Assembly: GCA_964650515.1 (NCBI GenBank)
Contig: CAZYUB010000010.1
Location: 12,938-76,937, forward strand
DNA length: 64,000 nt
DNA from: an uncultured Planctomycetia bacterium
Lineage (GTDB): Bacteria > Omnitrophota > Gorgyraeia > Pluralincolimonadales > Pluralincolimonadaceae
Direction of reading: 5' to 3'
Shown here in pieces: positions 45,761 to 61,050 of the stretch (position 1 is the first letter of the stretch; each line of letters opens with the position of its first letter). Below the pieces are notes generated by a model. That model saw nothing but the letters and a program-made list of their open reading frames with translations. It was not told the DNA's origin and did not search any database. A program made the translations under genes and the position numbers.

Positions 45761-45763
45761 GCG

Positions 45764-47292: not shown

Positions 47293-47759
47293 CTTGACGA
47301 TGCCTCCTTCTCCTGCTCATGGCGGTGTTTCGCGTCCATCGATATTATCAATGTCCGTATACCCTCGCTCTCCGATACCCATTTGAGCCCGAGTATAAGC
47401 GTCGCCACAAGGAATTGCGCGAAATATTTAGGCGCGGTGAACGACAGCGTGAACGCTATTACCGTGGCGGCAAGCCAGATATAACTCTGCATCCTCTTCT
47501 TCCCCGTATCCATCTTCGCAAGGCCTTTCGCTTTTTCTTTTAATTTTGCCGGCGTATCCGCGAGGGCGCCTTCGGCGAGCATGCTTTCGGCCGTATGCGC
47601 CGCCCTTATATTCTCAAGGCATGATGCGCAGGCCGAAGCGTGCTCTTCAAGGCGGTCCTTCTCCCACGGGGTCATCGCGCCGCCTACATACCTGGCCAGC
47701 ACCGCCTCGTCGGGGCACGTTATCTTTGTTTCGCGGAGGTTGCCTATGCTCTTTTCCAT
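47280..47759 (-). CDS. putative zinc-finger (zf-HC2-like) membrane anti-sigma factor
   Basis: N-terminal H-x3-C-x2-C motif (EEHASACASCLE) and one TM helix. It lies immediately downstream of the ECF sigma factor. Confidence 0.55.
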   Translation of the reverse strand: MEKSIGNLRETKITCPDEAVLARYVGGAMTPWEKDRLEEHASACASCLENIRAAHTAESMLAEGALADTPAKLKEKAKGLAKMDTGKKRMQSYIWLAATVIAFTLSFTAPKYFAQFLVATLILGLKWVSESEGIRTLIISMDAKHRHEQEKEASSRWKR

Positions 47760-47760
47760 A

Positions 47761-48384
47761 TTATAGTAGACGTTTCTTTTCGAGTTTTTCTTTCAGGTTT
47801 TTTTTCGCCCGCGCGACAATCGTGGAGACCGTGTTCACCGGGAGCCCAAGGGCCGCAGATATCTGCGCGTGCTTCATCCCGTGCAGCAGGCTCATCCCGG
47901 CGGCCATCCTCTCTTTCGGGCTGAGCCCTTCTATCGCCGAAACCAGTTCCGCGCGGGCCTCATTCAGTTGCGCCTGCCTGTCCGGGCCGGCCGCGGCGGA
48001 AGGCAGGACATCCTCGAGCGTCCTGCCGTCGTCTTCTTTGTATATCTGCTCATATAATGATACGGATGACGGGGGGCTTTGCCTCCTCGCCCTCCTGAAA
48101 TGCTCTATAGCCGCGTTGCCCGCGACCATCGCGAGCCACCCCGCGACCTTTCCGGGCTCCCTGAGCTGGCTTAACTTGCCGCCGGCCCATAAAGCGACAA
48201 AGACATCCTGGTGGATGTCGTTGATGTCTTCCTCGCTATGTTCGTATCCGTAACGCCTGAGCCGGTCGCGTATAGCCCAATAGACCACCTTCGAATACCT
48301 TTCGACGAACGCGTCCCACGATCTCCTGTCCTTCCTTATGCAGCCGAGCACCAGTTCTTCGGGATTTTCGTTCGGGTCCATCAC
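47761..48384 (-). CDS. RNA polymerase sigma factor, ECF subfamily
   Basis: Sigma-70 region 2 (DINDIHQDVFVALW) and region 4 HTH (ERMAAGMSLLHGMKHAQISAALGLPVNTVSTIVARAKKNLKE). 207 aa. Confidence 0.85.
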   Translation of the reverse strand: MMDPNENPEELVLGCIRKDRRSWDAFVERYSKVVYWAIRDRLRRYGYEHSEEDINDIHQDVFVALWAGGKLSQLREPGKVAGWLAMVAGNAAIEHFRRARRQSPPSSVSLYEQIYKEDDGRTLEDVLPSAAAGPDRQAQLNEARAELVSAIEGLSPKERMAAGMSLLHGMKHAQISAALGLPVNTVSTIVARAKKNLKEKLEKKRLL

Positions 48385-48995
48385 TCTTTAGGCATTATCT
48401 TTTCTTCGAAAGCATTGGCCGTTACCGGCATCGTATCCCTGAATATCTTAAGCAGGGCCTTCGCGTATTCGCGTATCTCCGGCTGCGCCCCCTTATCGAG
48501 GCGCAGTTTCAGGAAGTTCATCAGGGAACGCGCGTTGACTGTCCAGTAATAAAGGGTGTATATCGAGAGCGGCAGCACGCCGCGCGCCTGCTCGCGTTTT
48601 ATCCCGGACGATACCATCGACTCGTAGGCGTCGAAAGCGCCGTTAACGGCCTTCTTATATTTAAGAAGTTCCTCGCCCGACAGGCCTTCGGGCGTGTAGA
48701 AATCCCTCTTAGCCAGGCAATAACGCAGCGACATCTCGTTATACGTACCGATGCGGTGGCGTATCCACTGGCGCGCGACGAATATCGGGCATTTGACGTC
48801 GAAACGGAAATAGGCGTGCTCGAAAGGCGTGCCGTGGTCTTTTATTATCAGGTGGCGGACCAGCTTAGCATCGGCATCCGCACCTTGCGGCTCGCTCATG
48901 TAGCAGCGGCGCGCGCTTTCTATGACGGCCTTGTCCCCGCCCATCGAATCGATGAGCGCGACGTAGCCGTTATCGAGGACTTTTATCTGCTGCAT
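48381..48995 (-). CDS. thyX: flavin-dependent thymidylate synthase ThyX
   Basis: ThyX signature RHRxxxxxS (RQWIRHRIGTYNEMSLRY) and NGYVALID N-terminus. 204 aa. Confidence 0.9.
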   Translation of the reverse strand: MQQIKVLDNGYVALIDSMGGDKAVIESARRCYMSEPQGADADAKLVRHLIIKDHGTPFEHAYFRFDVKCPIFVARQWIRHRIGTYNEMSLRYCLAKRDFYTPEGLSGEELLKYKKAVNGAFDAYESMVSSGIKREQARGVLPLSIYTLYYWTVNARSLMNFLKLRLDKGAQPEIREYAKALLKIFRDTMPVTANAFEEKIMPKE

Positions 48996-49131
48996 CTTTC
49001 TTGGCTTTTTCTTTCTTCTCGTAGCATTCGGGGCAGTTATACATCGGCTTCGCCAGCGTCCTGTCGTAGCCGGGAGCCACGACCACCCTCTTCACTTCAG
49101 GGACTTCACGTCCGCAGGTATCGCATTTCAT
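48970..49131 (-). CDS. small zinc-ribbon protein (C-x2-C ... C-x2-C), 53 aa, not in the supplied ORF track
   Basis: MKCDTCGREVPEVKRVVVAPGYDRTLAKPMYNCPECYEKKEKAKKDAADKSPR. A GGAGG RBS lies 8 nt upstream of the ATG at 49131. The 3' end overlaps the thyX start by 26 nt. Confidence 0.45.
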   Translation of the reverse strand: MKCDTCGREVPEVKRVVVAPGYDRTLAKPMYNCPECYEKKEKAKKDAADKSPR

Positions 49132-49184
49132 TTGTTGTCCTCCGGTTTGATGATTCTATCAATATGCGGCGCTTTTTTCAACCG

Positions 49185-50012
49185 CTATTTCGGGCGGCGC
49201 GCGGCAAAAACCAGGAATACCGCGATCACGATAAGCCCTATTATGACTATCATGACCGACGAGAACGACAATGCCAGAGCCGGGGCGGGCCCCGCGAAGA
49301 CCGCTATGCCCCATTCGCTCGGGTCTGCATAAACATTCTTCGTCCCGTGCCAGGTGAACTGCAGCTCCCTCTTGTGCGTATCGCCGTCGTCCACCGAGAT
49401 GTCAAAATCTATCTTCCTTCCGGCCTCGGGCTTGAACCCGCCGAGGGCCTTGAAGGGTATCTTCGACTCGATTATGTAGCCCTTATCCCACCTGATCGAA
49501 GCGACCTCTATGCCGCCTTCGTAGTCGTCCCGTCGCCAGACCCACTCCCCCGCCTTTATATCCTTTTCATTTCCGGGGGTTATGCCTATCTGGTAATCCT
49601 GTTTCACGAAGAACATCCTCTTCGGGTCCGCGGTTTCGTCGAGTCCGAGCATTATCTCTAACGCGTCGCCGTCCCAGATGTCCGGGCCTTCCTTGCTGTT
49701 GTCGAAAGGCACGTCATCGGTCACCTTCGCCGCCACATACAGAGCGTCGTCATCCCATAACAGGTAGATGTCCGCGCTGAGGTCGTCCTTGCCCGACCAT
49801 ACGTTATACATTAGTATTTCGTAGGTTTGCTTGTCCATCCTTATGGCATAACCGGGATATTTGCTTAGGTCGCAATCGACTTTGACCGGTTTTGTTGCCT
49901 TATGGATGCGGACTTCGGGTTTCGGCACGGGCTTATCCTGCGCCTGGCACTGCTGGAGGGAAAAGAAAAACAGGAAAAGGGCTGCCGCCGTGAGCTTAAA
50001 TAGCTTTTTCAT
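49185..50012 (-). CDS. secreted CBM9-like (DOMON-type carbohydrate-binding) protein with C-terminal TM/basic anchor
   Basis: Signal peptide. Domain with LSADIYLLWDDDALYVAAKVTDD...IWDGDALEIMLGLDE, paralogous to the C-terminus of the GH26 protein. C-terminal TM plus RRPK tail. Confidence 0.5.
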   Translation of the reverse strand: MKKLFKLTAAALFLFFFSLQQCQAQDKPVPKPEVRIHKATKPVKVDCDLSKYPGYAIRMDKQTYEILMYNVWSGKDDLSADIYLLWDDDALYVAAKVTDDVPFDNSKEGPDIWDGDALEIMLGLDETADPKRMFFVKQDYQIGITPGNEKDIKAGEWVWRRDDYEGGIEVASIRWDKGYIIESKIPFKALGGFKPEAGRKIDFDISVDDGDTHKRELQFTWHGTKNVYADPSEWGIAVFAGPAPALALSFSSVMIVIIGLIVIAVFLVFAARRPK

Positions 50013-50030
50013 CTGGACCTCCAGGATTTC

Positions 50031-52373
50031 TTATATTCTATCAGAAATCCTGGGACGTGTCCAATGGGGACGTGTCACTTGGGGACAGGTCTTACCGTTA
50101 ATGAACACCTTCCCTTTCGTCACTTTGATATCATACTGCTTGCCACGGAAGGAGCGCTTCATCGTGAACCCGTCCCATGAGGAGGGAAGGCGCGGATCTA
50201 CCGTCAGCCCGTCGAGCGTAGCGCGCACGCCGAGTATCCAGTCGGTAAAGGCGCGGAACATCCACGCGGACGTCCCGGTAAGCCATGAATGGCTCCCGCG
50301 GCCGAATTGCGGGTGGTCGGGGCCGAAGAGGAACTGGCTGTAGACATACGGCTCGACCCTGTAGGTCTCCGCGCCGGCTTTCTTCGCGGCGACGGCCGGA
50401 AGCAGCTTGCGGTAATAGCCGAACGCCCTGTCCGCGCGGCCGAGCATCGCCTCGGCGATCACCGCCCAGGTATTCGCGTGGCAGAATATCGCGCCGTTCT
50501 CCTTTATGCCCGCCGGATAGTTGATCAGCGAGCCGATATCGTCCGGGCCGCTCGTATAGGAAGGCCAGCATATCCTGATGCCGAGGTCCGTATCGAGGTA
50601 TTTCCTGACGGCGTCCATGCATTTGATGCCGCGCGCGCGGCCAGCGACACCGCTCAATACCGCCCAGCTCTGCGTGTTTATATGTATCTTCCCCTCCTCG
50701 CATTCCTTCGAGCCGACGGGCCGCCCGTCGTCGGTAAAAGCCCGTATATACCATTCGCCGTCCCAGGCGGTATAGTTTATCCGCTGCTTCATTTCGTCGT
50801 ATATCTTCGTGAAGTTCTTCGCGTCCCTGGTCTTCTCCATCTTCGCAGCCAGTTCGGCCATCTGCCTCGCGGTATAGCAAAGGAACATCGCGACCCATAC
50901 CGATTCGCCCCTGCCTTTCCTGTCGATGTCGTTGAGGCAGTCGTTCCAGTCCGCGTAGAACATCCTCGGCAGGCCGTGCGGCCCGCAGTTCGCGAGCGTA
51001 TAATTTACCGCCCGGACCATATGCTCGTAGATCGTCCCGCAGGACCCCTCGATATACGGGGCCTTATCCTCAAGCACGGAGTAATCGCCTGTCTCGCAGA
51101 TATACGAGTATACGGCCGGGATCATCCAGAGGTGGTCATCGGAATATTTCTTCGGTTCGCCGGTGCCTACCGTCGGGTAGAAGAGGTGGTACGCGTGCCC
51201 GTCCTCGTACATGTTCTTCGCGAGCAGTTTTATCTTATCCTTCACCTGCGGCGCTATCGCGTGGACGACGCCGAGCGTGTCCTGGCTCGTGTCCCTGAAG
51301 CCGATGCCGCGGCCGGTGCCCGTGTTATACATTAGCGACGCGTAACGCGACCAGTCGAACGTAGTCCTCGACTGGTACTGGTTCCATATATTTATGTTCG
51401 CATTGACCGCGGGGTCCGGCGTCTCGATTATCAGCTTCGACGTATACTCCTCCCAGTATTTTTTGACGCGCTCGAGCTCATGAGCTACATGGCTTTCGTC
51501 CGAGTACTTCCGCAATATCCTGTCCGGTGTCAGCTTGTTCTCATACGCGTCGACGCCGAGGACGACCGTTACCTCCTTCCGCTCCCCGGGCTTGAGCTCG
51601 AGGCGCACCGAGAGCGCGCCTATCACGTTCCCGCCGATGACCTTTGAACATTTATGCCTGCCGGATTTCACCGCTTCCGGGTTTGTCTCGCTGCGGTACT
51701 TGCCGATGAAAGCTTCCCTCTCGCAATCGTAACCCCGGACTGCCCGGTTGGTGACGGCGAAGAACACCCTGGAAAAGTTACGCTTAAAATATCCCTTTTT
51801 CTTGTTGTAAAAAGAATAGTATATAGCCTTGTCGCGGCTGTCGTATTCGGCCATGGAGAAATAGTGGAGGTTCGGATGGAACATGAACTCCTCAGACGCG
51901 TCGAAGAGCGCGAACTCAACGTACGGCGTGGCCGTTATGGAGCGTTTCTCCTTTCCGGAATTCGTTATTACGGCGGACCACACTTCGATGTTGTCATCCA
52001 ACGGCACGAAATAAGTGACCTCGCTGGTTATTTTTTTGCTCTCGGAGGATATCTTCGTGTATCCGAGGCCGTGCCTGCACTCCCACGCGTCCGGCGCCTT
52101 GCAGACGGGCTGCCAGCCGGCGGACCAGTATTCCCCCGTCTCCGCGTCCCTGAGGTATACGTACCTGCCGGGCCTGTCGAGAGGCACGTTATTGTACCTG
52201 TACCTCGTTATGCGCTGGTACTTGGGGTCCTCAAAGAAACTGTAACCGCCCCCGGTCTGCGATATCAGCGCCGCGTACTTGCCGTTGCAGAGGTAATTTA
52301 TCCACGGCGTCGGCGTATCGAACCTGTTTATTATGAACTCCTTCCTGTCCCTCGAGAACCCGCCGTAATCCAT
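50031..52373 (-). CDS. GH94-family glycoside phosphorylase (cellobiose/cellodextrin phosphorylase-like)
   Basis: N-terminus (FDTPTPWINYLCNGKYAALISQTGGGYSFFEDPKYQRITRYRYNNVP) closely resembles cellobiose phosphorylase as I recall it. 780 aa. The C-terminal ~22 aa are encoded by the repeat element. Confidence 0.78.
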   Translation of the reverse strand: MDYGGFSRDRKEFIINRFDTPTPWINYLCNGKYAALISQTGGGYSFFEDPKYQRITRYRYNNVPLDRPGRYVYLRDAETGEYWSAGWQPVCKAPDAWECRHGLGYTKISSESKKITSEVTYFVPLDDNIEVWSAVITNSGKEKRSITATPYVEFALFDASEEFMFHPNLHYFSMAEYDSRDKAIYYSFYNKKKGYFKRNFSRVFFAVTNRAVRGYDCEREAFIGKYRSETNPEAVKSGRHKCSKVIGGNVIGALSVRLELKPGERKEVTVVLGVDAYENKLTPDRILRKYSDESHVAHELERVKKYWEEYTSKLIIETPDPAVNANINIWNQYQSRTTFDWSRYASLMYNTGTGRGIGFRDTSQDTLGVVHAIAPQVKDKIKLLAKNMYEDGHAYHLFYPTVGTGEPKKYSDDHLWMIPAVYSYICETGDYSVLEDKAPYIEGSCGTIYEHMVRAVNYTLANCGPHGLPRMFYADWNDCLNDIDRKGRGESVWVAMFLCYTARQMAELAAKMEKTRDAKNFTKIYDEMKQRINYTAWDGEWYIRAFTDDGRPVGSKECEEGKIHINTQSWAVLSGVAGRARGIKCMDAVRKYLDTDLGIRICWPSYTSGPDDIGSLINYPAGIKENGAIFCHANTWAVIAEAMLGRADRAFGYYRKLLPAVAAKKAGAETYRVEPYVYSQFLFGPDHPQFGRGSHSWLTGTSAWMFRAFTDWILGVRATLDGLTVDPRLPSSWDGFTMKRSFRGKQYDIKVTKGKVFINGKTCPQVTRPHWTRPRISDRI
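50052..50091 (-). repeat. triple tandem ~10-bp direct repeat (GACCTGTCCCC / GACACGTCCCC / GACACGTCCC; 15-bp period), copy B, inverted relative to copy A
   Basis: Read from sequence on the minus strand. It lies within the last ~20 codons of the GH94 ORF and is followed by an AGGATTTCT-N12-AGAAATCCT hairpin and the CBM9 gene RBS. Confidence 0.6.
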
Positions 52374-52385
52374 TTAGGTGCCTTT

Positions 52386-52412
52386 CATATATACTGGTTG
52401 TATACCATATTA
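52386..52412. promoter_or_regulatory. conserved motif copy S2 (TATATACTGGTTGTATACCATAT), 15-37 nt upstream of the GH94 start
   Basis: Shares TATAC(T/A)GG-N2-GTATACCA with the copies at 55954..55975 and 59646..59674. Candidate operator for the adjacent AraR-like regulator. Confidence 0.5.
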
Positions 52413-52429
52413 ATCAAAAAAAATAACCG

Positions 52430-53569
52430 TTATTTCGGCTTAGCGCTCGATTCCCTTACGACGAGATCGACAGGTATCACCTCTTTCGTCGCGATATTTA
52501 TGCGCCCTTCTATCCTGTCTATGAGCTTCTTAAGCGCTATCGAGCCCATCTCTTCCTTCGGCACGTTAACGGTGGTAAGCGGCGGTGTGGAGAGCGCGGC
52601 CCATTCTATGTTGTCGAAGCCGACGATCGATATGTCGCGCGGTATCGAAAGGCCGCTCTTGTCGCGTATTGCCTTCATCGCGCCCATCGCCGCCTCGTCG
52701 TTTATCGCGAAGACCGCGGTCGGAAGAGGGCTCTTCTTCAATATCTTCTCCATCGCCTTATACCCTTCCTCGACCATGTAGTAGGCCTCTATGACGAGGC
52801 CGTCGTCGTATTTGATACCGGCCTCTTGGAGGGCTTCTTTATAGCCCTCGAGCCTGCCTATCGACGCGGGCTGGTCCTGAAGCGGCGCGCGTATCATCGC
52901 TATGCGTTTGTGGCCGAGGTCCGTAAGGTGCTTCACGGCCAGGTATCCGCCGAGACGGTTGTCGGGTATGACAGAATCAATCGCGGGCTTCGAGATCTCG
53001 TTATCGACGAGGACGAGCGGGAACTTCTTGTCGTAGAGGCTCAGGACCGTCGTACGGTCGAGCCCCCCGATGACGATGATACCGTCGACGTTGTTCTCCA
53101 TCGCCCATCTCGCGATATCGCGCTCATCCTTTACCGATGTCACGAAATTGAACGAGAGCGTGCAGCCCATCCTCAGGGCTTCCTTCTGCATCGTCGAGAA
53201 TATGCCGACGTAGTAAGGGCTTAATATGGGCGATTGCGAGGTCGGGTTAAGGCGCCTCAGTATGCACGCGATGTTCTTGCGCCTCGACTGGCGCTTCATC
53301 GACGAAAAGGCATGGGCTTTCTGCAGCCCTTCCGCGTCCGAGACGAACGTCCCGGTGCCGGGTACGGAATACAGAAAGCCCTCCCTTATCAATTGCGCGA
53401 TGCCGCGCCTTAATGTGATGCGGTTGATCCCATGCTCCTTGCTCAGGATGCGTTCCGAAGGGATAGGTTCCCCGGGCTTGAACTGGCCGGCCTGGACCTG
53501 CTTGCGCAGTATATCGGCGAATTGCTGGTAGAAGAACTTTCCGCTCGACTTGTCCACCTTCGGGCTCAC
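52430..53569 (-). CDS. AraR-like transcriptional regulator (GntR-type wHTH plus LacI/PBP-like sugar-binding domain)
   Basis: N-terminal GntR HTH (PIPSERILSKEHGINRITLRRGIAQLIREGFL). C-terminal periplasmic-binding-protein fold typical of LacI/GalR effector domains. 379 aa. Confidence 0.7.
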   Translation of the reverse strand: MSPKVDKSSGKFFYQQFADILRKQVQAGQFKPGEPIPSERILSKEHGINRITLRRGIAQLIREGFLYSVPGTGTFVSDAEGLQKAHAFSSMKRQSRRKNIACILRRLNPTSQSPILSPYYVGIFSTMQKEALRMGCTLSFNFVTSVKDERDIARWAMENNVDGIIVIGGLDRTTVLSLYDKKFPLVLVDNEISKPAIDSVIPDNRLGGYLAVKHLTDLGHKRIAMIRAPLQDQPASIGRLEGYKEALQEAGIKYDDGLVIEAYYMVEEGYKAMEKILKKSPLPTAVFAINDEAAMGAMKAIRDKSGLSIPRDISIVGFDNIEWAALSTPPLTTVNVPKEEMGSIALKKLIDRIEGRINIATKEVIPVDLVVRESSAKPK

Positions 53570-53581
53570 GGGATCCTCCTG

Positions 53582-54205
53582 TTATTTGATATCGACGACC
53601 TTAAGCTCGTCGATGTGTATCGTGACGGATTTCTTGCCCTTGTTATATGCCGGGCCGACCGCGAACTTGATCTCTTTAAGCTCGGCCGGGTTGAAATCTA
53701 TGCCGGTAACCATCTTGCTGTTGTTCGCGTCCCAATACTGCCCCTTCTTGGGATAGGCGGTGAACGGTATGACCACCTTCTGCCACTCCTTGGTAGTCCT
53801 GACGAAGTTCGGGGTAGCCATTACGCCTATCTCCGTCTTGTTGCCGTCGCTGTCGTCCGCGTCTATGAGTATGACCTCGAAGTTCTCCCCGCCTTCCGCG
53901 CCTTTCACCCAGAACTCTATGCCGGGTTTCTTATACTGCGTAAGGTCCGCGAGCGGATAATGCCCCACCGCCGCGCCGGACCACTGCGTGCAGTCAAGCG
54001 TCGCCGTAAGGCAGGCGTCTCCCGACTTTGCGCCGGACTTGTTGATCTCGAACTCCGTGCCTCCTCCGTATACGTATTTATACTGGCCGTTCGATTCGTC
54101 TATCACGTCGATGTAATAATCTACCGTTTCGGCCTGCGCAAGCCTCGCTGCGCCTACAAGCGCCAAACCGCACAAGAACATTACCGCAAACACCCTCTTT
54201 CCCAT
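53582..54205 (-). CDS. secreted beta-sandwich protein, putative carbohydrate-binding module (paralog of 58964..59608 and 63723..64000)
   Basis: Signal peptide from the internal Met at 54205, which abuts the GH26 stop. ~180-aa domain ending ...KSVTIHIDELKVVDIK, matching the ends of the two paralogs. Confidence 0.45.
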   Translation of the reverse strand: MGKRVFAVMFLCGLALVGAARLAQAETVDYYIDVIDESNGQYKYVYGGGTEFEINKSGAKSGDACLTATLDCTQWSGAAVGHYPLADLTQYKKPGIEFWVKGAEGGENFEVILIDADDSDGNKTEIGVMATPNFVRTTKEWQKVVIPFTAYPKKGQYWDANNSKMVTGIDFNPAELKEIKFAVGPAYNKGKKSVTIHIDELKVVDIK

Positions 54206-54207
54206 CT

Positions 54208-55941
54208 TTACTGCCCCCTTTCTTTGAATACGACAAAGCCCCACTGGCAAGGTTCCTCATAAAATCTCTCGTCCCCCGAGAGGACCATCTGAGTGTGCCT
54301 GTCCTTTGTGTCCGAATCGTTCAATGCCACGTTGAAGCTGACCTTCATGCCGGGCGACGGTACAAAGTCCTGCGAGAACGACTTCCACGGCACCACCGCC
54401 TCGACAATATACCCGCCGGCTGCGCCCTGCGCACCCTCCGGCTTATATACCGCCGACTGCACTCCTTCGACCCTGTTCTTCAACTGCCATGACCATCTCT
54501 GCGGGATAACTTCCTTCCTGTTGCCGGTGCTGAAACCGATCTGGTAATCCGCCGCATCGAAAGCCATCCTGTCGGGGTCGGCTTCAGGGTCGAGGCTGAA
54601 CGCTATCTCGAAACTGTCGCCGTTCCATATCGCGTCGCCGCGCTTATCGTTGATGAAGGGCTTGTCGTCCTTTACCTTTGCCGCGACATAAAGGTTCGCC
54701 TCGTCCCACATCAGGTATACTTCCGCGCTTATATCGTCGGGGCCTTTCCAGATATCCTGGCCCATGATCACGTTCCTCTTGTCGCTTATCACGACCGGCA
54801 CAACATCCGCCCATTCGGAGAGGTCGCCGTCCGCCGTGACGGGTGCGGCTGCCTTCATAATCTCGATCACCGGCCTTGCGTATTCCGCCTGCGGGGCCGG
54901 CCTGAGTTCCGCCGTGACGCCTTCCGGAAGCTTGAACCCTTTCAGCAGTTTGGAAAAATACACGGGATCGCTCTTGAAATACGGGTCGGATACCGCTTCC
55001 GAGAACGCCTTGAGTATATCATTTTTCCCGTGAAGCCGCCAGTCGCATTCCTTCTTTATATTAAACCACACGATCGCTTTTACGCGCGGGAATTTTTGCC
55101 TGAGCGCAACAAAGGCGTCTTTTATCCATTGTATCTTGTCGCCGCCGGCGTCGCCCGAGGCGAATTCGCCTATCATTATCGGCTTACCTGGATATTTTTC
55201 CGTCAGTTGCTTATAACGTTTCGCGAATACCTTCTCGAACGGGTTCCAGCGGCTCCACTTCTCGGCCGTGCCCCAGTTATAACCGTCTATAGATACCCAG
55301 TCGACGTAGTTGTCTCCCGGGTAGTAATTGCTGTAGGTGTTCCACTGGGTCCACGGCACCTCGGTATCCATGACGCACCAGACCCATATCGCGTTATCGG
55401 CGCCGACCTCTTTAAAGAGGTCGTATACGTGGCGCCACGCCTTAATGTACTTCTTCGGGTCCTTATCGTTCTGGGCGCCGGACCACGGGTACCAGTTGCC
55501 GTCCATCTCGTGGCCCATACGAAGGAAATACGAGGTCCCGAGCCTCTTTCCGCGCTTCGCGAACGTCCTTATATATTCGTCATACTGCCCGTTGATTATG
55601 TTGTCGAGGTAGATTATGTCCTTGCCGTCCTTCTTTATCCAGGGCTCCCATGTTACGTGGGGTATGGCGCCGTAATCGACGATCGCCTGGCAGTCCTCCA
55701 GCGGGAAGATCTTCTGCCAATCGATGTAGAACATCACGGAGCCGGACTTCTTGTTTGCGGCGGCGTCGAAACGGTTTATCGGCGCGATGCGTATGGGGGT
55801 GTTCTCCATGAATATGCCCCACAGGCAGCCTTCGGGGATGTCCTGCGCCGCGGGGTCCGCTGCCGCGCAATCCGCCCTTCCGCAGGAGGCGAAAAGCGCG
55901 ATGGACAGGAATAACGGTATCATGGCCGGTATCAATCTCAT
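54208..55941 (-). CDS. GH26-family glycoside hydrolase (beta-mannanase-like) lipoprotein with C-terminal CBM9-like domain
   Basis: Lipobox LFASC. GH26 acid/base motif FLRMGHEMDGNWYPW and nucleophile region IMIGEFAS. C-terminal ~190 aa are homologous to the CBM9-like protein at 49185. Confidence 0.72.
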   Translation of the reverse strand: MRLIPAMIPLFLSIALFASCGRADCAAADPAAQDIPEGCLWGIFMENTPIRIAPINRFDAAANKKSGSVMFYIDWQKIFPLEDCQAIVDYGAIPHVTWEPWIKKDGKDIIYLDNIINGQYDEYIRTFAKRGKRLGTSYFLRMGHEMDGNWYPWSGAQNDKDPKKYIKAWRHVYDLFKEVGADNAIWVWCVMDTEVPWTQWNTYSNYYPGDNYVDWVSIDGYNWGTAEKWSRWNPFEKVFAKRYKQLTEKYPGKPIMIGEFASGDAGGDKIQWIKDAFVALRQKFPRVKAIVWFNIKKECDWRLHGKNDILKAFSEAVSDPYFKSDPVYFSKLLKGFKLPEGVTAELRPAPQAEYARPVIEIMKAAAPVTADGDLSEWADVVPVVISDKRNVIMGQDIWKGPDDISAEVYLMWDEANLYVAAKVKDDKPFINDKRGDAIWNGDSFEIAFSLDPEADPDRMAFDAADYQIGFSTGNRKEVIPQRWSWQLKNRVEGVQSAVYKPEGAQGAAGGYIVEAVVPWKSFSQDFVPSPGMKVSFNVALNDSDTKDRHTQMVLSGDERFYEEPCQWGFVVFKERGQ

Positions 55942-55953
55942 TGGTTTGCCTTT

Positions 55954-55975
55954 CTATACAGGTAGTATACCACAT
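55954..55975. promoter_or_regulatory. conserved motif copy S3 (CTATACAGGTAGTATACCACAT), 13-35 nt upstream of the GH26 start
   Basis: Same TATACWGG-N2-GTATACCA core. Followed by AAAGGCA-N5-ATG, as at S2. Confidence 0.5.
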
Positions 55976-55996
55976 CATTCGTAAATTGCAAATATT

Positions 55997-56701
55997 TTAC
56001 ATCGCCCTGCCGGCGCGCAGGGAAGCGGTATATGCTCCGCATCTCTTATATCCGGCCCAGGCCTTGCCGCTTACCTTCGGGTCGGGGTCTATCTCCGAGA
56101 CGATAAGATAGCACATCATGGCCGCCTGCCCGTATTCCGCACGGTCGGGCCCGTCGCAGGCCTTCGAAAGGCCCTCGTAGTACTTCGCCGCCTCGAGATA
56201 ATTCCTTGATGCCTGTTTCTTCTCGTCGCCTGTCTTCGAACGCAGGCCCGCAATTATACCTTCCGCGCTGCCGCCCGGCTCGATGCCCGGCAGCCTCAGC
56301 TGGCCCGCCAGGCCGCCGTTGCACAGCGCAATGCCCTTTTCTGCCAGCGTCTCCATGCCTTCCGGAGGGCTGTATCCCTCCGCTTCCGCGCCTGCCCGCG
56401 CCCGGCAGGCGATGCCTTCACTGGCGCACCCTTTTACGACCTCAAAACATCCCCTTGCGAGGATGAAGTACCTGCTCTTCTTCAACGGTATATCATGCTC
56501 TTTCGCGCGCTTCATGAGCTTCTCCGCGAGGTCCAGGTATGCCCTGCAGCATGACTCGCGCTCCTGCCTGTCCTCGATGCGGCTTATCCTGCCTACCGCG
56601 ATCTTCACGTCGGAATCGCAGTTCGGCATGAATATGCCATCATCGGCCGCGCAGGCCCCGAAACTTAACATTGCCGCAAACGCTAATACGAGGCTCTTCA
56701 T
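55997..56701 (-). CDS. secreted cysteine-rich hypothetical protein
   Basis: Signal peptide (MKSLVLAFAAMLSFGACA) and 14 Cys in the mature part. Start at the internal Met at 56701 (GAGGAG RBS), directly after the GspK-like gene. Confidence 0.4.
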   Translation of the reverse strand: MKSLVLAFAAMLSFGACAADDGIFMPNCDSDVKIAVGRISRIEDRQERESCCRAYLDLAEKLMKRAKEHDIPLKKSRYFILARGCFEVVKGCASEGIACRARAGAEAEGYSPPEGMETLAEKGIALCNGGLAGQLRLPGIEPGGSAEGIIAGLRSKTGDEKKQASRNYLEAAKYYEGLSKACDGPDRAEYGQAAMMCYLIVSEIDPDPKVSGKAWAGYKRCGAYTASLRAGRAM

Positions 56702-56712
56702 CCGGCATCTCC

Positions 56713-58860
56713 TCATTGCCAGTAGACAATCTGCGCCCTTGGCATGAACGAGACGGTAACATCCTCAAGGACCGCGGTCTCGCTATACCAGGGTTTTGTC
56801 GCCGCCAGCGCGTTATCGTTGGAAACGAAATTCGCCCTGTACTGTATCGAGGACGCCGCTGGCGAGGTGATCCCGCCGCCGGCCCCCGGTGCCTGCCACG
56901 TATTGCCGCCGTCAACGCTTGTGAGCAAGTCAACCCTTTCCGAGGACGCATTTGCCGTGGACGGGACGGTTACGGTCCCCGCGATCGAACCCCAGGCCAC
57001 GACGGCGCCGGTGCCGTTCGGGGCCGACACATAATAGCCGTCCTGCGGTATTATCCTGACATTGTCGAAAGCCGGCAGGTGGTATTCCCCGTATAACCTC
57101 ACAAGCCCGGCCGCGTTCGTACCGCCCCCGTTGATATTCGAGAAAGTATAATTGCCTTCCTGTATCCTGCCCGAGGAAGCATTGTAATAAGCCCAATATA
57201 CCCTGTTCTGGCATACCACGCGCAGCGTCTTGCGCAGGACATAGGGTTCCGAATAATTGGCCCACGAAGGGCTCGCCCACATATGCAGCATCCCCGTATG
57301 GGGCAAAGGCCCCGGGTCCACGCCGTACGCGACGCCCTGCTGCATGTCCTCGATGTAATAGCTGGCGTCCCCGGCGCTCGTCCTCTTGAAGACGATCCTG
57401 CCCACGTCGTTCTGGAACCTGAAAGCGTACGATGCCGGGTTTGTTATGGGATACTCGTAGTCGATCGGCTCCATAGCGTCCCACCAAAACCTCATGCGCA
57501 TGTCATAGGTCCTTATCTTGTCGTCTATGTATACCTGCGCGCTATGGTTAGCCCACATCCATCTCGGGGAGGCCTCAAGGCCGAGGTCGCAGGTCGGCCA
57601 TAATTTCGTATTATCGGAGGTTTCCGTGTCGTACTGCCCGATGACCGTCGTGTTCCATATCCCGTCCCTCGGGTTCCATTCGTTATTCGTCCAGTCGGTC
57701 TGCTGTCCGACATTGCCGTCTATATTCTCGGTGAAATTGTCCCAGAACCCCGCCTTTATCGAGTTCTTTATTACGTCGTAATCCGCGGCGGCGGCCCCGT
57801 TCCAGTCCTGGTCGGACCTTACCGGGCAGCTGTCCATGAAATTCACCCGGACCATCTCCCCGTTCGACATATCCCCTTCCCCCGCTCCGGAGGCCCAGTT
57901 GTCATTGCGCCATACCAGGGCGAACTGGCCCTTTGTCGTCTCGTTCCATATATCGAAAATTTTTATTACCGCATGGGCCTGCCTTGACGCAACGGCGATC
58001 CCCGCGATATTTCTCACGGTCCCCGACGACGTCATTTCATAATAACCGCCGGAATTGAAGCAGAACTCCGTCGAATAGGCCGCCGGCTTCGTCCTGTTCG
58101 GGTTCGCGCCGTCCTTTACTTCCCTGCTCTCCGCAGGGTTCAGCCCGATATAATTGTCAATGAACGCGTCGAACTGCTGCCAGCCGGTGAACGGCCGCGC
58201 GGCGATGATCGCCTGCGCAAGGCCCTGCGACTTCGCGTCGCTGTTTACGAGGCTGCGGAGCACCGCCCGCAGGACGGGTTCCGAAGCCGTGTTGATATTG
58301 ACCGGCGCCCTTTCCTCCGTCGTGGTATCGTCAGGCAGGAAAGTATTCCGGTCCTTATAACCGTATAATGTGACATATTCCTTTATCGAGTCGTATTTGG
58401 CGGCGCTTATGCCCGCCCTGATCTTTATCTCTTCCTTTGTGGTGTACGGGGCGTTATCCGCGACAGCCTGGCACTCTATGGAAGTCAGCGGGTTGCCCAG
58501 GGCCGTGTTAAGGTTTTGCATCATCTGGCCGATCCTGCTGTTTTCGGTATTGTTCACGTTTATCTGCCTCGCGCAATCTATCACCGTGACCGTATAGCCG
58601 CCTTCAGAATAACCGGAATACCATGCCTCCGAAGACGTATCGAAAGCGGTATTCGCGGCCCCCTCCGGGCCGTTTTTGAGCTCGGCTATGGCCCTGGCGA
58701 TCCCGGCTTCCGCGAGGTATCTCGCCTTTAAGCCCCTTGAGTAGCTCACGGCCTCCTTGCCGGCCAAAAGCATGTTCACGGCAAAGGTCGTGCCTATGAG
58801 CGCCATCAGCGATAACACGCCCACCACGAGTATCAGAGCCACGCCTTTTTTTCCGCGCAT
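56713..58860 (-). CDS. giant GspK-like (type II secretion minor pseudopilin K family) protein
   Basis: N-terminus (RGKKGVALILVVGVLSLMALIGTTFAVNMLLAGKEAVSYSRGLKARYLAEAGIARAIAEL) and a PVNINTASEPVLRAV helix-hairpin element typical of GspK, followed by a ~500-aa extra domain. Start at the internal Met at 58860. Confidence 0.55.
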   Translation of the reverse strand: MRGKKGVALILVVGVLSLMALIGTTFAVNMLLAGKEAVSYSRGLKARYLAEAGIARAIAELKNGPEGAANTAFDTSSEAWYSGYSEGGYTVTVIDCARQINVNNTENSRIGQMMQNLNTALGNPLTSIECQAVADNAPYTTKEEIKIRAGISAAKYDSIKEYVTLYGYKDRNTFLPDDTTTEERAPVNINTASEPVLRAVLRSLVNSDAKSQGLAQAIIAARPFTGWQQFDAFIDNYIGLNPAESREVKDGANPNRTKPAAYSTEFCFNSGGYYEMTSSGTVRNIAGIAVASRQAHAVIKIFDIWNETTKGQFALVWRNDNWASGAGEGDMSNGEMVRVNFMDSCPVRSDQDWNGAAAADYDVIKNSIKAGFWDNFTENIDGNVGQQTDWTNNEWNPRDGIWNTTVIGQYDTETSDNTKLWPTCDLGLEASPRWMWANHSAQVYIDDKIRTYDMRMRFWWDAMEPIDYEYPITNPASYAFRFQNDVGRIVFKRTSAGDASYYIEDMQQGVAYGVDPGPLPHTGMLHMWASPSWANYSEPYVLRKTLRVVCQNRVYWAYYNASSGRIQEGNYTFSNINGGGTNAAGLVRLYGEYHLPAFDNVRIIPQDGYYVSAPNGTGAVVAWGSIAGTVTVPSTANASSERVDLLTSVDGGNTWQAPGAGGGITSPAASSIQYRANFVSNDNALAATKPWYSETAVLEDVTVSFMPRAQIVYWQ

Positions 58861-58963
58861 CTTATCCCCGCCTGTAAATAGTTTAGGGAGGCCTGAGAGT
58901 TGGGGGACTGCATTACTATCAGGCCTCCCCAAACGAACTGGGTTGTCTATACTTAGAAGCGGA

Positions 58964-59608
58964 TCACTTCTTCCTTCTGGAGGCCGCTAACATCCCGACC
59001 AAACCCGAGCCGAGAAGCAGCAAGCTTGCCGGTTCCGGTACCGCCTGGATGTCATCGACGCCGAAGTCTACGCTGCCTCCGGGTGCGGTGCCGCCGCATG
59101 CCACGACCAGGTTGATCTGCTTTAGGTCGCCGGTCCATACGTCATCGCCGGTCCCCGCGTTCTGGTCGACAAAGTTCGCGAAAGGCAGCGATATCGTCTT
59201 CCAGCCCGTCCAATCGATGGGCGTGTAGGTCGGAGAGCCGTAATAGCCGCCCGCGAATACATCGCCGTCGTTCTCGTACAGCTCATACTTGATCGTGCCG
59301 TAGCTGCCGTCTCCCTTCACGCTGACGACCAGGTCTGACAGGCCCGACCAGTTCTGCGGTTTGTAATTTCCCCATCCGCCCAAATACCAGTTGCCGTTCA
59401 CATCGGTGCCGTTAAGCCTGAGGTAATTACCGCTGGGCCCTCCCGCAACCGTGGCCTCCGAAAGCTCTCCCGTATCCTGGAATCCGTAAGAACCGGAAGG
59501 CAGGGCCGGAGGAGTCGAGGTCTCAAAATCCTCCCAGGTTGCAGCCGAAACGCCTGATGCGAACAGGAGGGACACAGCCAAAACAACTAAAATAGAGAAT
59601 CTCTTCAT
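58964..59608 (-). CDS. PEP-CTERM sorting-domain protein with CBM-like beta-sandwich domain
   Basis: Signal peptide. C-terminal VPEPASLLLLGSGLVGMLAASRRKK (PEP motif, TM, basic tail) is the exosortase recognition tail. Confidence 0.7.
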   Translation of the reverse strand: MKRFSILVVLAVSLLFASGVSAATWEDFETSTPPALPSGSYGFQDTGELSEATVAGGPSGNYLRLNGTDVNGNWYLGGWGNYKPQNWSGLSDLVVSVKGDGSYGTIKYELYENDGDVFAGGYYGSPTYTPIDWTGWKTISLPFANFVDQNAGTGDDVWTGDLKQINLVVACGGTAPGGSVDFGVDDIQAVPEPASLLLLGSGLVGMLAASRRKK

Positions 59609-59645
59609 TATTCTTTTTCACCCCCTTCCCGTCACCATCTCCCCA

Positions 59646-59674
59646 TATATATACTGGACGTATACCAGTATATT
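59646..59674. promoter_or_regulatory. conserved motif copy S1 (TATATATACTGGACGTATACCAGTATAT) upstream of the PEP-CTERM/GspK-like operon
   Basis: Same core as S2 and S3. Lies in the 130-bp gap between the PEP-CTERM gene start and the M48 gene stop. Confidence 0.5.
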
Positions 59675-59738
59675 ATATATCGGGCATAAGTCAAGGGTAA
59701 ATATTTGTTAATTTTGGGTGCGTATTACGGCGGGTACT

Positions 59739-60521
59739 TTACCACTTGTTATCGAGAGGCTTGTTGATCCACTCCCTGAAGGTCTTCCTCCCCTCGATCG
59801 CGCTTTCTATCTTGCCCATCCTCTCGCCTACGTAAGGGTGGGTTTTGAAGTAGGAATACGGCCTTATGTCGTTCTTCTTCTCCCTCTTCATCGTCTCCAT
59901 GAAGGTCAGCACCCCGTGCGGGTCATACCCCGCTTCCCTCGTATAGAGGACGGCGCGCTTGTCCGCCTCGAACTCGTCCTCGCGGGAATACGACGCCATA
60001 AGGGAGGTTATCGCGAGGTCGGTAGCCCTAGCGGCGTTGCCCCCCTGCGTCGCCGCGACAAGTATCATCGCTATGCTGGCCACTGAGCTCTGCTGGAGCT
60101 TCTTCATATGGTGCCGCGCGGCTATGTGCCCGATCTCATGCGCCAGTACGCCGGCGAGCTCGTCGTCGTTCTTGCAGACATCGATGAGGCCCGAGAATAC
60201 ATAGACCCATCCGCCCGGCAGCGATACGGCGTTGATATCGTCGACCGCGAGCACTTTGAAATGGTATATTAGCTCCTTGCGGTCGCAGTACTTCACGAGC
60301 CTTTGGCCTATCAGCTCCACCCTCTCCTGGGCGTGTTTGTCGGGATCGAGCTTATATACGGCCTCGACCTTCTTTGCGATCGAATCGCCCATCTCCATCT
60401 CCTTTTCAGGGGAGACGATGATGTTCTCGTCCTTCCCGGTAACCATGTTATATTCTGCCGGGCAGTCCGCCGCAACGGATAAGAAGCATATTATCGCCGC
60501 AAAACACGCTATCTTCGCCAT
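59739..60521 (-). CDS. M48-family zinc metallopeptidase (BepA/YcaL-like), secreted
   Basis: Signal peptide. HEIGHIAARH (HExxH) with a downstream Glu ligand region (EDEFEADKRAV). 260 aa. Confidence 0.75.
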   Translation of the reverse strand: MAKIACFAAIICFLSVAADCPAEYNMVTGKDENIIVSPEKEMEMGDSIAKKVEAVYKLDPDKHAQERVELIGQRLVKYCDRKELIYHFKVLAVDDINAVSLPGGWVYVFSGLIDVCKNDDELAGVLAHEIGHIAARHHMKKLQQSSVASIAMILVAATQGGNAARATDLAITSLMASYSREDEFEADKRAVLYTREAGYDPHGVLTFMETMKREKKNDIRPYSYFKTHPYVGERMGKIESAIEGRKTFREWINKPLDNKW

Positions 60522-60538
60522 GCGGATAAATTATCATA

Positions 60539-60567
60539 TTGAAAAATGGAAGTAAAGCACTTATAAT
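60539..60567 (+). promoter_or_regulatory. sigma70-like promoter TTGAAA-17-TATAAT, 6 nt upstream of the ATG at 60574 (near-leaderless)
   Basis: TTGAAA at 60539-60544 and TATAAT at 60562-60567. No SD between the -10 element and the start codon. Confidence 0.55.
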
Positions 60568-60573
60568 AGCCCT

Positions 60574-61050
60574 ATGAATAAGACGATCTGCCTCGCGCTC
60601 GCTGTGGCCTCGCTAGCCTGCTGCCTCCATGGCTGTTCGCAACAGCAACATAAGAAGGAAGCCATAGCGACGATCGGCAGCTACTCCCTATACAGGGACG
60701 ATTTCATGTCCGAGCTTGCGTTATACCCTCCGGAATACCTCCAAAAGGTCACAAAAGAACAGATCCTCGACGGGATAATACAGAAGAAGGTGCTGCTTCT
60801 GGAGGCCCAGCGCCGCGGGCTCGACAGGGACCCCCAGTTCATGAAGATGGTCGAACGCTTCTGGGAACAGAGCCTGCTGCGTTCGCTGCTGGATACAAGG
60901 TCCGAAGAGATACTCTCTGAGATACCGGAAACGGACAAGGACCGGAACATAAAGGCCGGCGAAGCGCTGAGGTCGTGGATAGAGGAGCTCGAGAAGAAGA
61001 CCCCCGTTGAGATCAACGCCGATGCCCTGGAGAAGATAACCATAAAATGA
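60574..61050 (+). CDS. lipoprotein with SurA-N-like chaperone domain
   Basis: Lipobox LACCLHGCS. ~130-aa helical domain (KKVLLLEAQRRGLDRDPQFMKMVERFWEQSLL). Confidence 0.45.
   Translation: MNKTICLALAVASLACCLHGCSQQQHKKEAIATIGSYSLYRDDFMSELALYPPEYLQKVTKEQILDGIIQKKVLLLEAQRRGLDRDPQFMKMVERFWEQSLLRSLLDTRSEEILSEIPETDKDRNIKAGEALRSWIEELEKKTPVEINADALEKITIK

Follow-up and report, generated by a model that had tools for sequence, protein, structure and literature searches.

The window, that is, the whole 64-kb stretch of DNA from an uncultured Omnitrophota bacterium that was analysed, carries a minus-strand locus coding for carbohydrate-binding proteins, glycan-active enzymes and a regulator, in which three near-identical intergenic sites, S1, S2 and S3, precede three transcription units (Table 1). 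Pfam searches agree with the genes named in the initial annotation: GH94, GntR with Peripla_BP, CBM30/11, GH26 with CBM9, T2SSK-like, and CBM11 with PEP-CTERM. S1 heads the operon coding for the CBM11/PEP-CTERM, GspK-like and secreted Cys-rich proteins, and S3 heads the GH26/CBM9, CBM30 and regulator genes. S2 is placed in the 56-nt gap between the regulator gene and the GH94 start codon. A terminator-like hairpin divides the S3 operon from the GH94 unit, and the CBM9 gene that follows GH94 may be part of the latter. The start codons downstream of the sites are all on the minus strand, 13–41 nt from the motif core. The regulator is the only one found between 49185 and 59608, as proposed initially for the locus as a whole; an ECF sigma/anti-sigma pair adjoins the locus just downstream, at 47280–48384.

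Table 1. Coordinates of the sites, genes and expression signals of the locus (window numbering).
Feature	Position	Strand	Remarks
Exact TATACWGGNNGTATACCA matches	52390-52407, 55955-55972, 59650-59667	(-)	
S1	59650..59672 (full 23-bp form); 59650-59667 (18-bp core)	(-)	PWM 29.4 bits; core 41 nt from CBM11/PEP-CTERM ATG (59608)
S2	52390..52407	(-)	TGGTATACAACCAGTATA; PWM 28.2 bits; core 16 nt from GH94 ATG (52373)
S3	55955..55972	(-)	TGGTATACTACCTGTATA; PWM 23.9 bits; core 13 nt from GH26 ATG (55941)
CBM9 protein	49185-50012	(-)	Pfam; after GH94
GH94 cellobiose-phosphorylase-like	50031-52373	(-)	Pfam; S2 upstream
Terminator-like hairpin + T-run	52425..52440	(-)	end of regulator gene; T-run kept in orthologues
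Regulator, 379 aa	52430..53569	(-)	GntR-type winged helix + LacI/PurR-type domain
CBM30/CBM11 protein	53582-54250	(-)	Pfam; second gene of S3 operon
GH26 (lichenase-type) + CBM9 lipoprotein	54208-55941	(-)	Pfam; first gene of S3 operon
S3-operon promoter-like site	55964..55991	(-)	TTGCAA-16 nt-TATACT, TG upstream (extended -10)
S1 operon, whole	55997..59608	(-)	
Secreted Cys-rich protein, 239 aa	55997-56716	(-)	S1 operon
GspK/T2SSK-like protein, 739 aa	56713-58932	(-)	Pfam T2SSK-like; S1 operon
CBM11/PEP-CTERM protein	58964-59608	(-)	Pfam; S1 operon
S1-operon promoter, sigma-70-like	59667..59694	(-)	TTGACT-16 nt-TATACT

A pattern search with TATACWGGNNGTATACCA returned three exact matches in the window, all in one orientation, which agrees with the earlier report of near-identical elements before three minus-strand starts. 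The coordinates first given for the three elements are also correct, except that the end of S1 had been set one base too far (the 28-mer occupies 59646–59673). Allowing up to 3 mismatches added no further copy in the 64 kb, and none lies inside a gene or at a non-promoter position. Shuffled sequences predict 0.23 copies in the window against the 3 observed, a test that is circular, since S1–S3 themselves supplied the pattern. In an unbiased direct-repeat search of 49000–61000, S1–S3 form the largest family (D1). Neither the window annotation nor the repeat search revealed a transposase or terminal-repeat features near the sites.

On the minus strand S1 reads TATAC-TGG-TATAC-GT-CCAGTATA, with three TATAC-type units. 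Each of the sites features two YRGTATA-type units on the same strand, 11 bp apart (TGGTATAC, NN, CCWGTATA), GGTATA being followed 11 bp on by (A/T)GTATA. The common architecture is [TATAC]-YRG-TAKAC-NN-CCRGTATA. Every copy contains GTATAC and agrees with the GntR-family operator signature (N)x-GT-N(0-15)-AC-(N)x (PMC1950556), which is a loose, non-discriminating criterion; the units also fit GTMTA, the usual half-site for winged helices of the GntR family. A pure palindrome (TATAC-N5-GTATA, TGGT-N5-ACCA, with 9-bp arms at S1) was considered and is the less probable reading, strong symmetry being confined to S1. What persists across clades is a set of same-strand RGTAT units in fixed orientation relative to the gene; depending on the clade, an array comprises two to four units of the RGTATA type at a spacing of about 11 bp, and L084 has a palindrome-like variant upstream of the regulator. 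For these two reasons, symmetry at S1 only and persistence of same-strand units, the tandem reading of the putative operators is preferred. The palindromic GTATAC core first taken as the signal gives way to an asymmetric, orientation-fixed RGTATA-type array, 23 bp long at S1.

The proposal that the sites overlap promoters is supported at S1 and S3. The predicted -10 box of the S1 operon abuts the site core, so that S1 spans about -7 to +11; its -35 hexamer TTGACT is kept in L087, L089, L090 and L081. At S3 the -10 hexamer falls within the first unit of the site. The promoter scan gave no convincing -35/-10 pair at S2. Sigma-54 or ECF promoters were dismissed on sequence alone, the conserved blocks being only 2 nt apart; the GG/GC spacing is moreover unlike -24/-12 of sigma-54 promoters and an enhancer-binding protein is absent nearby. 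The AAAGGCA-N5-ATG arrangement pointed out earlier does follow S2 and S3. Orthologues keep only GAAAGG there, and AAAGGCA is for this reason assigned as a predicted Shine-Dalgarno element outside the motif rather than as part of it.

The regulator is composed of a winged helix (residues 14–76; PF00392 at 1.5e-13), preceded by only about 13 residues, a variable linker, and a periplasmic-binding-protein fold (about residues 117–376; Peripla_BP_3 at 8.6e-40, Peripla_BP_1 at 8.4e-29). In the PDB, NagR/YvoA (3e-14) comes ahead of AraR (7e-10) for the N-terminal domain, and PurR/RbsR (5e-39) ahead of AraR (3tb6; 2e-19) for the C-terminal one. Across the regulator clade the residues of the recognition helix and wing (INRITLRRG ... 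PGTGTFV) are kept; homologues are annotated as Candidatus Omnitrophota. By these matches the protein is built from the same domains as AraR without being its orthologue; the initial designation "AraR-like" holds for the architecture and fails for orthology and for the site, which does not correspond to the ara box. A search of the literature on Omnitrophota and on cellulolytic regulons found no prior description of the regulator or of the motif.

The GH94 protein matches cellobiose phosphorylase at 3e-182, and the GH26 domain matches Clostridium thermocellum endoglucanase H (Lic26A) at 3e-52 versus about 1e-4 for mannanases. Because the enzymes are a cellobiose phosphorylase and a lichenase-type GH26, the substrate of the locus, as judged from these families, is beta-glucan, with a cello-oligosaccharide as the probable inducer. 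On the same matches mannan is rejected as the substrate, and the mannan-derived effectors proposed at first, such as mannobiose, are unlikely. No ara genes are present.

Footprint alignments show that S1–S3 are invariant, apart from one change of S3 in L090, in loci whose regulator is 92–98% identical, while the flanks diverge. S3 is unchanged in L087, L088 and L089, and five loci whose regulator is 92–99% identical share the S2 block ATGGTATACAACCAGTATATATGAAAGGCA without change. Related sites head the same kinds of operon, including that of the regulator, in loci with regulators at 73–74%, 57–59%, 44–45% and 41% identity. L081 (74%) has a single site, nearly identical to S1, which heads a long operon with the regulator and GH94, and no site before GH94 itself. 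L154 (73%) has three sites, one of them nearly identical to S2. The orthologous counterpart of S1 in L154, L084 and L148, identically placed, is TATACCAGTAGACTACCAGAATA; L084 and L148 (regulator 57–58% identical) carry GTATACCAGTAGACTACCAGAA twice. Units of the ATACCAGTA type occur twice, 10–11 bp apart, in L150 and L155 (44–45%), and 3–4 tandem TGGTATA units at 10–11 bp are found in L152 and L001 (41%; Omnitrophota and Auribacterota). In these last two loci the three sites precede a pilin or surface-protein operon, an operon for endoglucanase and CBM proteins, and either GH94 or the regulator. The gene set of the S1 operon accompanies the regulator in L084, L148 and L152 as well. L156, which has GH94 and only a 39% identical paralogue of the regulator, has no site at all.

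A scan of the genome collection with the regulator alignment yielded 80 loci, of which 78 code for unrelated LacI regulators because the back-translated patterns corresponded to the generic LacI domain; the comparison gained only L001 and L002, and the unrelated loci served as a 2-Mb negative control. In about 207 kb of clade loci the phased pair RGTAT-N6-RGTAT was counted 18 times, where dinucleotide shuffles would give 0.92. A separate count over 2.06 Mb of loci for unrelated LacI regulators gave 5. Matches to the PWM above 20 bits are found only at operon heads in the clade loci, and the 2.06 Mb of controls contain only 3 matches of at least 18 bits. Footprints and recurrence down to 41% identity thus support the initial proposal of a candidate operator shared by a small sugar regulon under the local regulator.

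The closest known systems define what is usual and what is particular in this arrangement. Bacillus subtilis AraR likewise joins an N-terminal GntR winged helix to a C-terminal GalR/LacI-type sugar-binding domain (PMC1950556, PMC4494728). It, too, is a local repressor of operons for glycan use and has sites at several promoters, its own among them; its operators are in phase on one DNA face and carry the GT...AC signature. It differs in its domain affinities, as described above, in its targets (arabinose, arabinan or xylose genes with L-arabinose as effector, versus beta-glucan genes), and in its ara box, a 16-bp palindrome ATTTGTACGTACAAAT (PMC1950556), whereas the units in the window are tandem and asymmetric. 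The ara box core TTGTACGTACAA has no match at up to 2 mismatches in the whole window. Escherichia coli NanR is a GntR-type repressor that reads TGGTATAW repeats, requires two or more close repeats and is cooperative (PMC8012715, PMC4494728). The candidate regulator resembles it by having direct repeats of nearly the same hexamer (GGTATA) at short fixed spacing over a promoter, and relatives of the locus carry 3–4 perfect TGGTATA repeats like the NanR (GGTATA)3 operator. The systems diverge in the second unit (AGTATA or TGTATA in the window, GGTATA in NanR) and in the repeat period, which is 9 and 8 bp in the nanA operator, read directly, and 10–11 bp in the clade. [quoted passage not shown]

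Other GntR-family members share parts of this pattern. Comparative genomics predicts TGGTATT direct repeats for NagQ of the HutC subfamily (PMC4494728), a sugar-catabolism regulator whose predicted TGGTAT(T/A) repeats are like those of the window and which differs by its UTRA-type effector domain and N-acetylglucosamine regulon. Among solved structures, B. subtilis NagR/YvoA comes closest to the DNA-binding domain. The HutC-subfamily consensus NyGTMTAKACNy (PMC4494728) has the GTMTA half-site in common with the window units. That consensus is a compact palindrome, GTMTAKAC, versus half-sites placed head-to-tail about one helical turn apart; the 8-mer is absent from S1–S3, which have GTATACGT, GTATACAA and GTATACTA there, only the GTMTA half being present. 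The winged helices of B. subtilis GabR (MocR subfamily) read two ATACCA direct repeats via flexible linkers (PMC4756830), ATACCA being the reverse complement of TGGTAT; GabR is set apart by a 29-bp bridge between the repeats, the need for DNA bending, an aminotransferase-fold domain and an activator-repressor switch. The reading of direct repeats by winged helices has thus precedent in NanR (TGGTATAW), NagQ (TGGTATT) and GabR (ATACCA) (PMC4494728, PMC8012715, PMC4756830), and the sites of the window, as sequences, resemble the operators of NanR and NagQ and not the palindrome of the AraR type.

S1–S3 are very probably operators through which the local GntR-wHTH/LacI-type regulator represses three sugar operons. 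Binding by the regulator, repression, stoichiometry and effector are features that we infer from what is directly observed: the sites, their conservation, their promoter-relative positions, the fact that they are found together with regulators of this clade, and the families of the enzymes. Without inducer, the regulator, dimeric or of higher order, would sit on one face of the DNA and keep RNA polymerase from the three promoters, a step proposed because the sites extend over the -10 box and the start of transcription at promoters of the sigma-70 type. The repressed units would be the surface glycan-binding operon (CBM11/PEP-CTERM, GspK-like), the operon of the GH26 lichenase-type endoglucanase, CBM30 and regulator, and the GH94 cellobiose phosphorylase. 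Since S3 heads the operon that contains the regulator, negative autoregulation is implied. A beta-gluco-oligosaccharide, most simply cellobiose, would bind the LacI-type domain and release the repressor. The motif scan of the source genome covered 64 kb, and outside this window the regulon may be larger or a second, distant regulator may exist.

Other explanations of the sites have to be weighed against operators of the local regulator. They could be operators of another transcription factor encoded elsewhere, for example a global carbon regulator, the local protein binding something else. Linkage within the 64 kb examined is an indirect way to assign a motif to a regulator, and this is the alternative that we rank highest, albeit as an unlikely one, since the motif travels with the regulator clade across two phyla and rearranged gene orders. 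Some of the sites also immediately precede the regulator gene or the operon that contains it, their unit is a known GntR-wHTH half-site (GTMTA/TGGTAT; PMC4494728), and L156, with its GH94 and distant paralogue, is devoid of the motif. Next in rank, and improbable, is that the motif is a promoter element only, consisting of extended -10-like boxes (TGnTATAnT) that occur in duplicate in strong sigma-70 promoters common to these operons, with no dedicated regulator binding. The repeat unit is indeed the local extended -10 consensus TGGTATAAT, so that part of the site conservation may be promoter-derived and not operator-derived. The first unit, TGGTATAC(T), fits the extended -10 form and at S3 coincides with the predicted -10 box; in the 41% clades the first TGGTATAT is at the correct distance from TTGACA, and TGGTATAAT heads unrelated genes in L155. 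However, S1 and the sites of L150, L155, L084 and L154 have a separate upstream -10 (TATACT, TATAAT or TATATT) followed by the units, the second unit and the CC dinucleotide are invariant despite having no promoter role, the motif is absent from all other promoters in the window, and phased pairs are far rarer in the 2 Mb of control loci.

The sites could also act in RNA, their inverted repeat forming a 5'-UTR hairpin or riboswitch-like attenuator: at S1, ATATACTGG and CCAGTATAT can form a 9-bp-stem hairpin of -12.2 kcal/mol (z = -1.8). This is very improbable, as S2 and S3 have no advantage in folding over shuffled sequences (z = +0.3 and +1.1), Rfam models give no match near the sites at E<=1, the direct repeats of relatives have no hairpin potential and the predicted -10 boxes place a large part of each site upstream of or at the transcription start. 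Chance similarity, or the remnant of a small mobile repeat without regulatory role, would suit short, AT-rich copies in AT-rich intergenic DNA. The footprint alignments effectively refute it, the sites being strictly kept at orthologous positions while the flanks drift. The excess over shuffles and the absence of intragenic or non-promoter copies, transposase and terminal repeats also count against this least probable of the explanations.

The preferred assignment of S1–S3 to the local regulator describes, in kind, a standard sugar repressor with its operator, an ordinary regulatory switch. A wider reading, which we advance tentatively and consider less likely than not, is that an undescribed GntR-wHTH/LacI-fold clade of Omnitrophota and Auribacterota reads head-to-tail TGGTATA arrays, one helical turn apart, and switches on a whole inducible glucan kit. 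Because the TGGTATA unit is the local extended -10 box, such a repressor would compete with sigma-70 base for base. If this is true, the kit would be an inducible system for capture and degradation of cellulose or mixed-linkage glucan, including the pseudopilin/GspK-like and PEP-CTERM carbohydrate-binding surface apparatus. It would further imply that lineages mostly described as ultra-small or dependent on a host have a saccharolytic way of life that responds to the substrate.

To our knowledge there is essentially no experimental genetics in Omnitrophota and Auribacterota. The sites provide for these uncultured bacteria a concrete candidate cis-regulatory code and a predicted regulon of surface glycan binders, endoglucanase and cellobiose phosphorylase. 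They also offer a compact test case of a GntR winged helix with a LacI-type sensor that would read tandem half-sites, where AraR reads inverted ones. The shared control would tie the conserved, uncharacterised GspK-like, PEP-CTERM and CBM surface proteins to the use of beta-glucan.

Three near-identical sites, S1, S2 and S3, precede the operons headed by the CBM11/PEP-CTERM, GH94 and GH26 genes, respectively, and were read in the sequence at the positions proposed in the initial annotation. The degenerate 18-mer TATACWGGNNGTATACCA matches all three exactly and in one orientation; no further copy with up to three mismatches is present in the 64-kb window. Its shuffle expectation is 0.23, a contrast inflated by the pattern having been built from these sites. 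An unbiased direct-repeat search of positions 49000–61000 returned S1, S2 and S3 as the largest family. They end 41 nt (S1), 16 nt (S2) and 13 nt (S3) before the start codon. The AAAGGCA-N5-ATG arrangement described behind S2 and S3 exists, with conservation in orthologues limited to GAAAGG, which identifies the element as a ribosome-binding site. Two more phased RGTAT-N6-RGTAT pairs (minus strand, 35049 and 39284) lie inside coding regions and do not match the full motif; they probably occur by chance (~0.1 expected for the whole window). A weak position weight matrix (PWM) match of 16.2 bits within the GH26 coding region is likely fortuitous because control loci yield 11 of that strength per 2.06 Mb.

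Sites and genes of the locus and surface operons of relatives (site positions are those of the 18-mer match)
Feature	Locus	Position	Strand	Sequence or basis
S1	window	59650–59667	minus	TGGTATACGTCCAGTATA
S2	window	52390–52407	minus	TGGTATACAACCAGTATA
S3	window	55955–55972	minus	TGGTATACTACCTGTATA
Weak PWM match	window	54978–55000	minus	GGAAGCGGTATCCGACCCGTATT
GH94	window	50031–52373	minus	Pfam
Hairpin and eight-T run past regulator stop	window	52408–52440		
Regulator, 379 aa, GntR winged helix and LacI-type periplasmic-binding-protein fold	window	52430–53569	minus	Pfam
CBM30/CBM11 protein	window	53582–54250	minus	Pfam
GH26 and CBM9	window	54208–55941	minus	Pfam
Secreted Cys-rich protein	window	55997–56716	minus	
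GspK/T2SSK-like protein	window	56713–58932	minus	Pfam
CBM11/PEP-CTERM protein	window	58964–59608	minus	Pfam
Surface operon	window	55997–59608		
Surface operon	L152	5815–9879		
Surface operon	L084	6066–9915		
Surface operon	L148	6155–9993		
Surface operon	L001	4586–6126		

Relatives (L-numbered loci) were gathered by graded regulator identity to the window protein, from 92–99% down to 39%; the nearest homologues of the window regulator are annotated as Candidatus Omnitrophota. In L087–L091 (92–99%) a site is found at each S1, S2 or S3 position present on the respective contig. The copies are identical save one S3 base in L090 amid varying intergenic bases, the other conserved blocks being the S1 -35 box TTGACT and the ribosome-binding sites. 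L081 (74%) has a lone site, TGGTATACATCCAGTATA, ahead of one long operon coding for CBM11/PEP-CTERM, CBM30, a 911-aa protein, CBM30, the regulator and GH94. In L154 (73%), whose regulator has the same recognition helix as the window protein, three units are headed by TATACCAGTAGACTACCAGAATA, TAGTCTGGTATAATACCCATTTA and TATACAGGTATACAACCAGTATA, the last nearly S2. L084 and L148 (57–58%) carry GTATACCAGTAGACTACCAGAA ahead of the CBM11 and CBM30-GH26 operons. The L084 regulator (57%) is preceded at ~9958–9985 by a near-perfect palindrome, ACCAGT-TATAT-ACTGGT, while two other L084 promoters are tandem; the same protein may accept inverted plus direct arrangements. In L082 (59%) the regulator is preceded by three GGTAT units at 11-bp spacing, and ATACC(A/G)GTA pairs spaced by 10–11 bp follow good -10 boxes in L150 and L155 (44–45%). 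At 41%, L152/L002 (Omnitrophota) and L001 (Auribacterota) have three sites per locus, each of 3–4 tandem TGGTATA at 10–11 bp, heading the pseudopilin/surface-protein, CBM/GH9 and GH94 or regulator operons. The 39% paralogue locus L156 has GH94 and lacks the motif. Across ~207 kb of clade loci there are 18 RGTAT-N6-RGTAT pairs, where dinucleotide shuffles predict 0.92; a separate count, on slightly different loci, found 17 in 188 kb and 5 in the 2.06 Mb of loci with unrelated LacI regulators. PWM scores above 20 bits are confined to operon heads of clade loci, the seeds of this ten-site matrix matching by construction, and only 3 matches of at least 18 bits occur in 2 Mb of control.

Aligned in sense orientation, all sites with a regulator of at least 44% identity read [TATAC]-YRG-TAKAC-NN-CCRGTATA. 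The complete 23 bp are seen at S1, TATAC-TGG-TATAC-GT-CCAGTATA (59672 down to 59650), and also yield 9-bp inverted arms; the first TATAC is missing from S2 and S3. Common to every clade are same-strand YRGTAT(A) units 10–11 bp apart, always gene-oriented and starting at or just past the -10 box. Comparative genomics supports the operator reading of the initial annotation, with the architecture corrected from a palindromic core to a tandem, asymmetric array. At S3 a predicted extended -10 box (TG-n-TATACT, with TTGCAA 16 nt upstream) sits inside unit 1. A predicted TTGACT-16-TATACT abuts the S1 core, so that S1 would span roughly -7 to +11. The promoter scan gave no strong -35/-10 pair at S2; ahead of it, where the regulator gene ends, lie a conserved hairpin resembling a terminator and a T-run. 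The T-run is found in all close orthologues and the stem sequence varies; this is probably an intrinsic terminator making GH94 a separate S2-controlled unit.

S1–S3 are very probably operators of the adjacent regulator. Chance similarity is excluded by the footprints conserved across relatives. That the sites are a promoter element without a dedicated regulator draws on L155, where TGGTATAAT extended -10 boxes lie ahead of operator-less genes at 257, 2254 and 4820; the operator unit therefore coincides with an apparent local extended -10 consensus. This explanation is weakened by the separate -10 boxes that S1 and the sites of several clades have upstream, by the invariance of the second unit, which has no promoter role, and by the motif occurring at no other promoter in the window. 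Reading by an unlinked regulator encoded elsewhere is quite improbable, since the motif accompanies regulators of this clade in both phyla and despite rearranged gene order. Rfam has no match and S2 and S3 fold no better than shuffles, which makes an RNA element unlikely.

The regulator shares its domain architecture with the AraR subfamily (PMC4494728, PMC1950556), and to that extent the "AraR-like" label holds. It does not extend to orthology: the winged helix (wHTH) is nearer NagR/YvoA (3e-14) than AraR (7e-10), the sensor is nearer PurR/RbsR (5e-39) than AraR (2e-19), the ara box core ATTTGTACGTACAAAT is absent from the window and the locus has no arabinose genes. The window repeat unit is the same as one half, GTMTA, of the HutC-type consensus and as the direct-repeat operator units of NanR (TGGTATAW), NagQ (TGGTATT) and GabR (ATACCA) (PMC4494728). 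Three NanR dimers bind cooperatively to a (GGTATA)3 operator (PMC8012715). In the E. coli K-12 genome this operator, CTGGTATAACAGGTATAAAGGTATATCG, has periods of 9 and 8 bp versus 10–11 bp for window-type sites; NanR also differs in its sensor domain and in a long N-terminal extension, which is absent from the window regulator. Our literature search found no paper on this regulator clade or motif.

The sites cover the -10 box and start site, so the regulator would repress by promoter occlusion. Its own operon bears a site in the window (S3), L081, L154, L152, L001 and L082, suggesting negative autoregulation. The wHTH-sensor linker (~25–40 residues) is poorly conserved and varies in length, compatible with two wHTH domains on tandem units of one DNA face, where either one dimer would span two units or each unit would take a dimer in the NanR manner. 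The LacI-type sensor suggests a small sugar inducer; given the enzymes of the locus, the simplest candidate is cellobiose or a related beta-gluco-oligosaccharide.

GH94 matches solved cellobiose phosphorylases (3e-182). The GH26 domain is closest to that of Clostridium thermocellum endoglucanase H (3e-52), which we take to be the Lic26A beta-1,3-1,4-glucanase (lichenase); mannanases score only ~1e-4. With GH9 cellulases in place of GH26 in relatives, these matches argue for a beta-glucan or cellodextrin locus and against the mannan first suggested. L148 (14434–17553) and L150 (1–4157) have an extra protein of GH162 type, a beta-1,2-glucanase family, or a large gene resembling glucan synthases adjoining the regulon, which hints at a substrate range differing among lineages. 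None of the three operons headed by the motif encodes a sugar transporter. Farther out, past thyX and an ECF sigma/anti-sigma pair (47280–48384), are genes for an MFS transporter (45764–46987) and an amino-acid-permease-like protein; the motif is absent at all of these (43769–48995).

A conserved surface operon stands beside the regulator in every clade, coding for a GspK/T2SSK-like protein (740–820 aa), a secreted unknown protein (~240–290 aa, Cys-rich in the window) and CBM11/PEP-CTERM; Auribacterota have a type-IV-pilin-like N_methyl/DUF1559 protein instead. This operon suggests a regulated pseudopilin-linked glycan-binding apparatus. The system is an uncharacterised member of a well-known type, that of local sugar repressors and the operators they bind. 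Three features are candidates for novelty: half-sites in tandem read by an AraR-type scaffold, a repeat unit that is the same as the extended -10 box, and regulation of a glycan-binding apparatus of pseudopilin and PEP-CTERM proteins.
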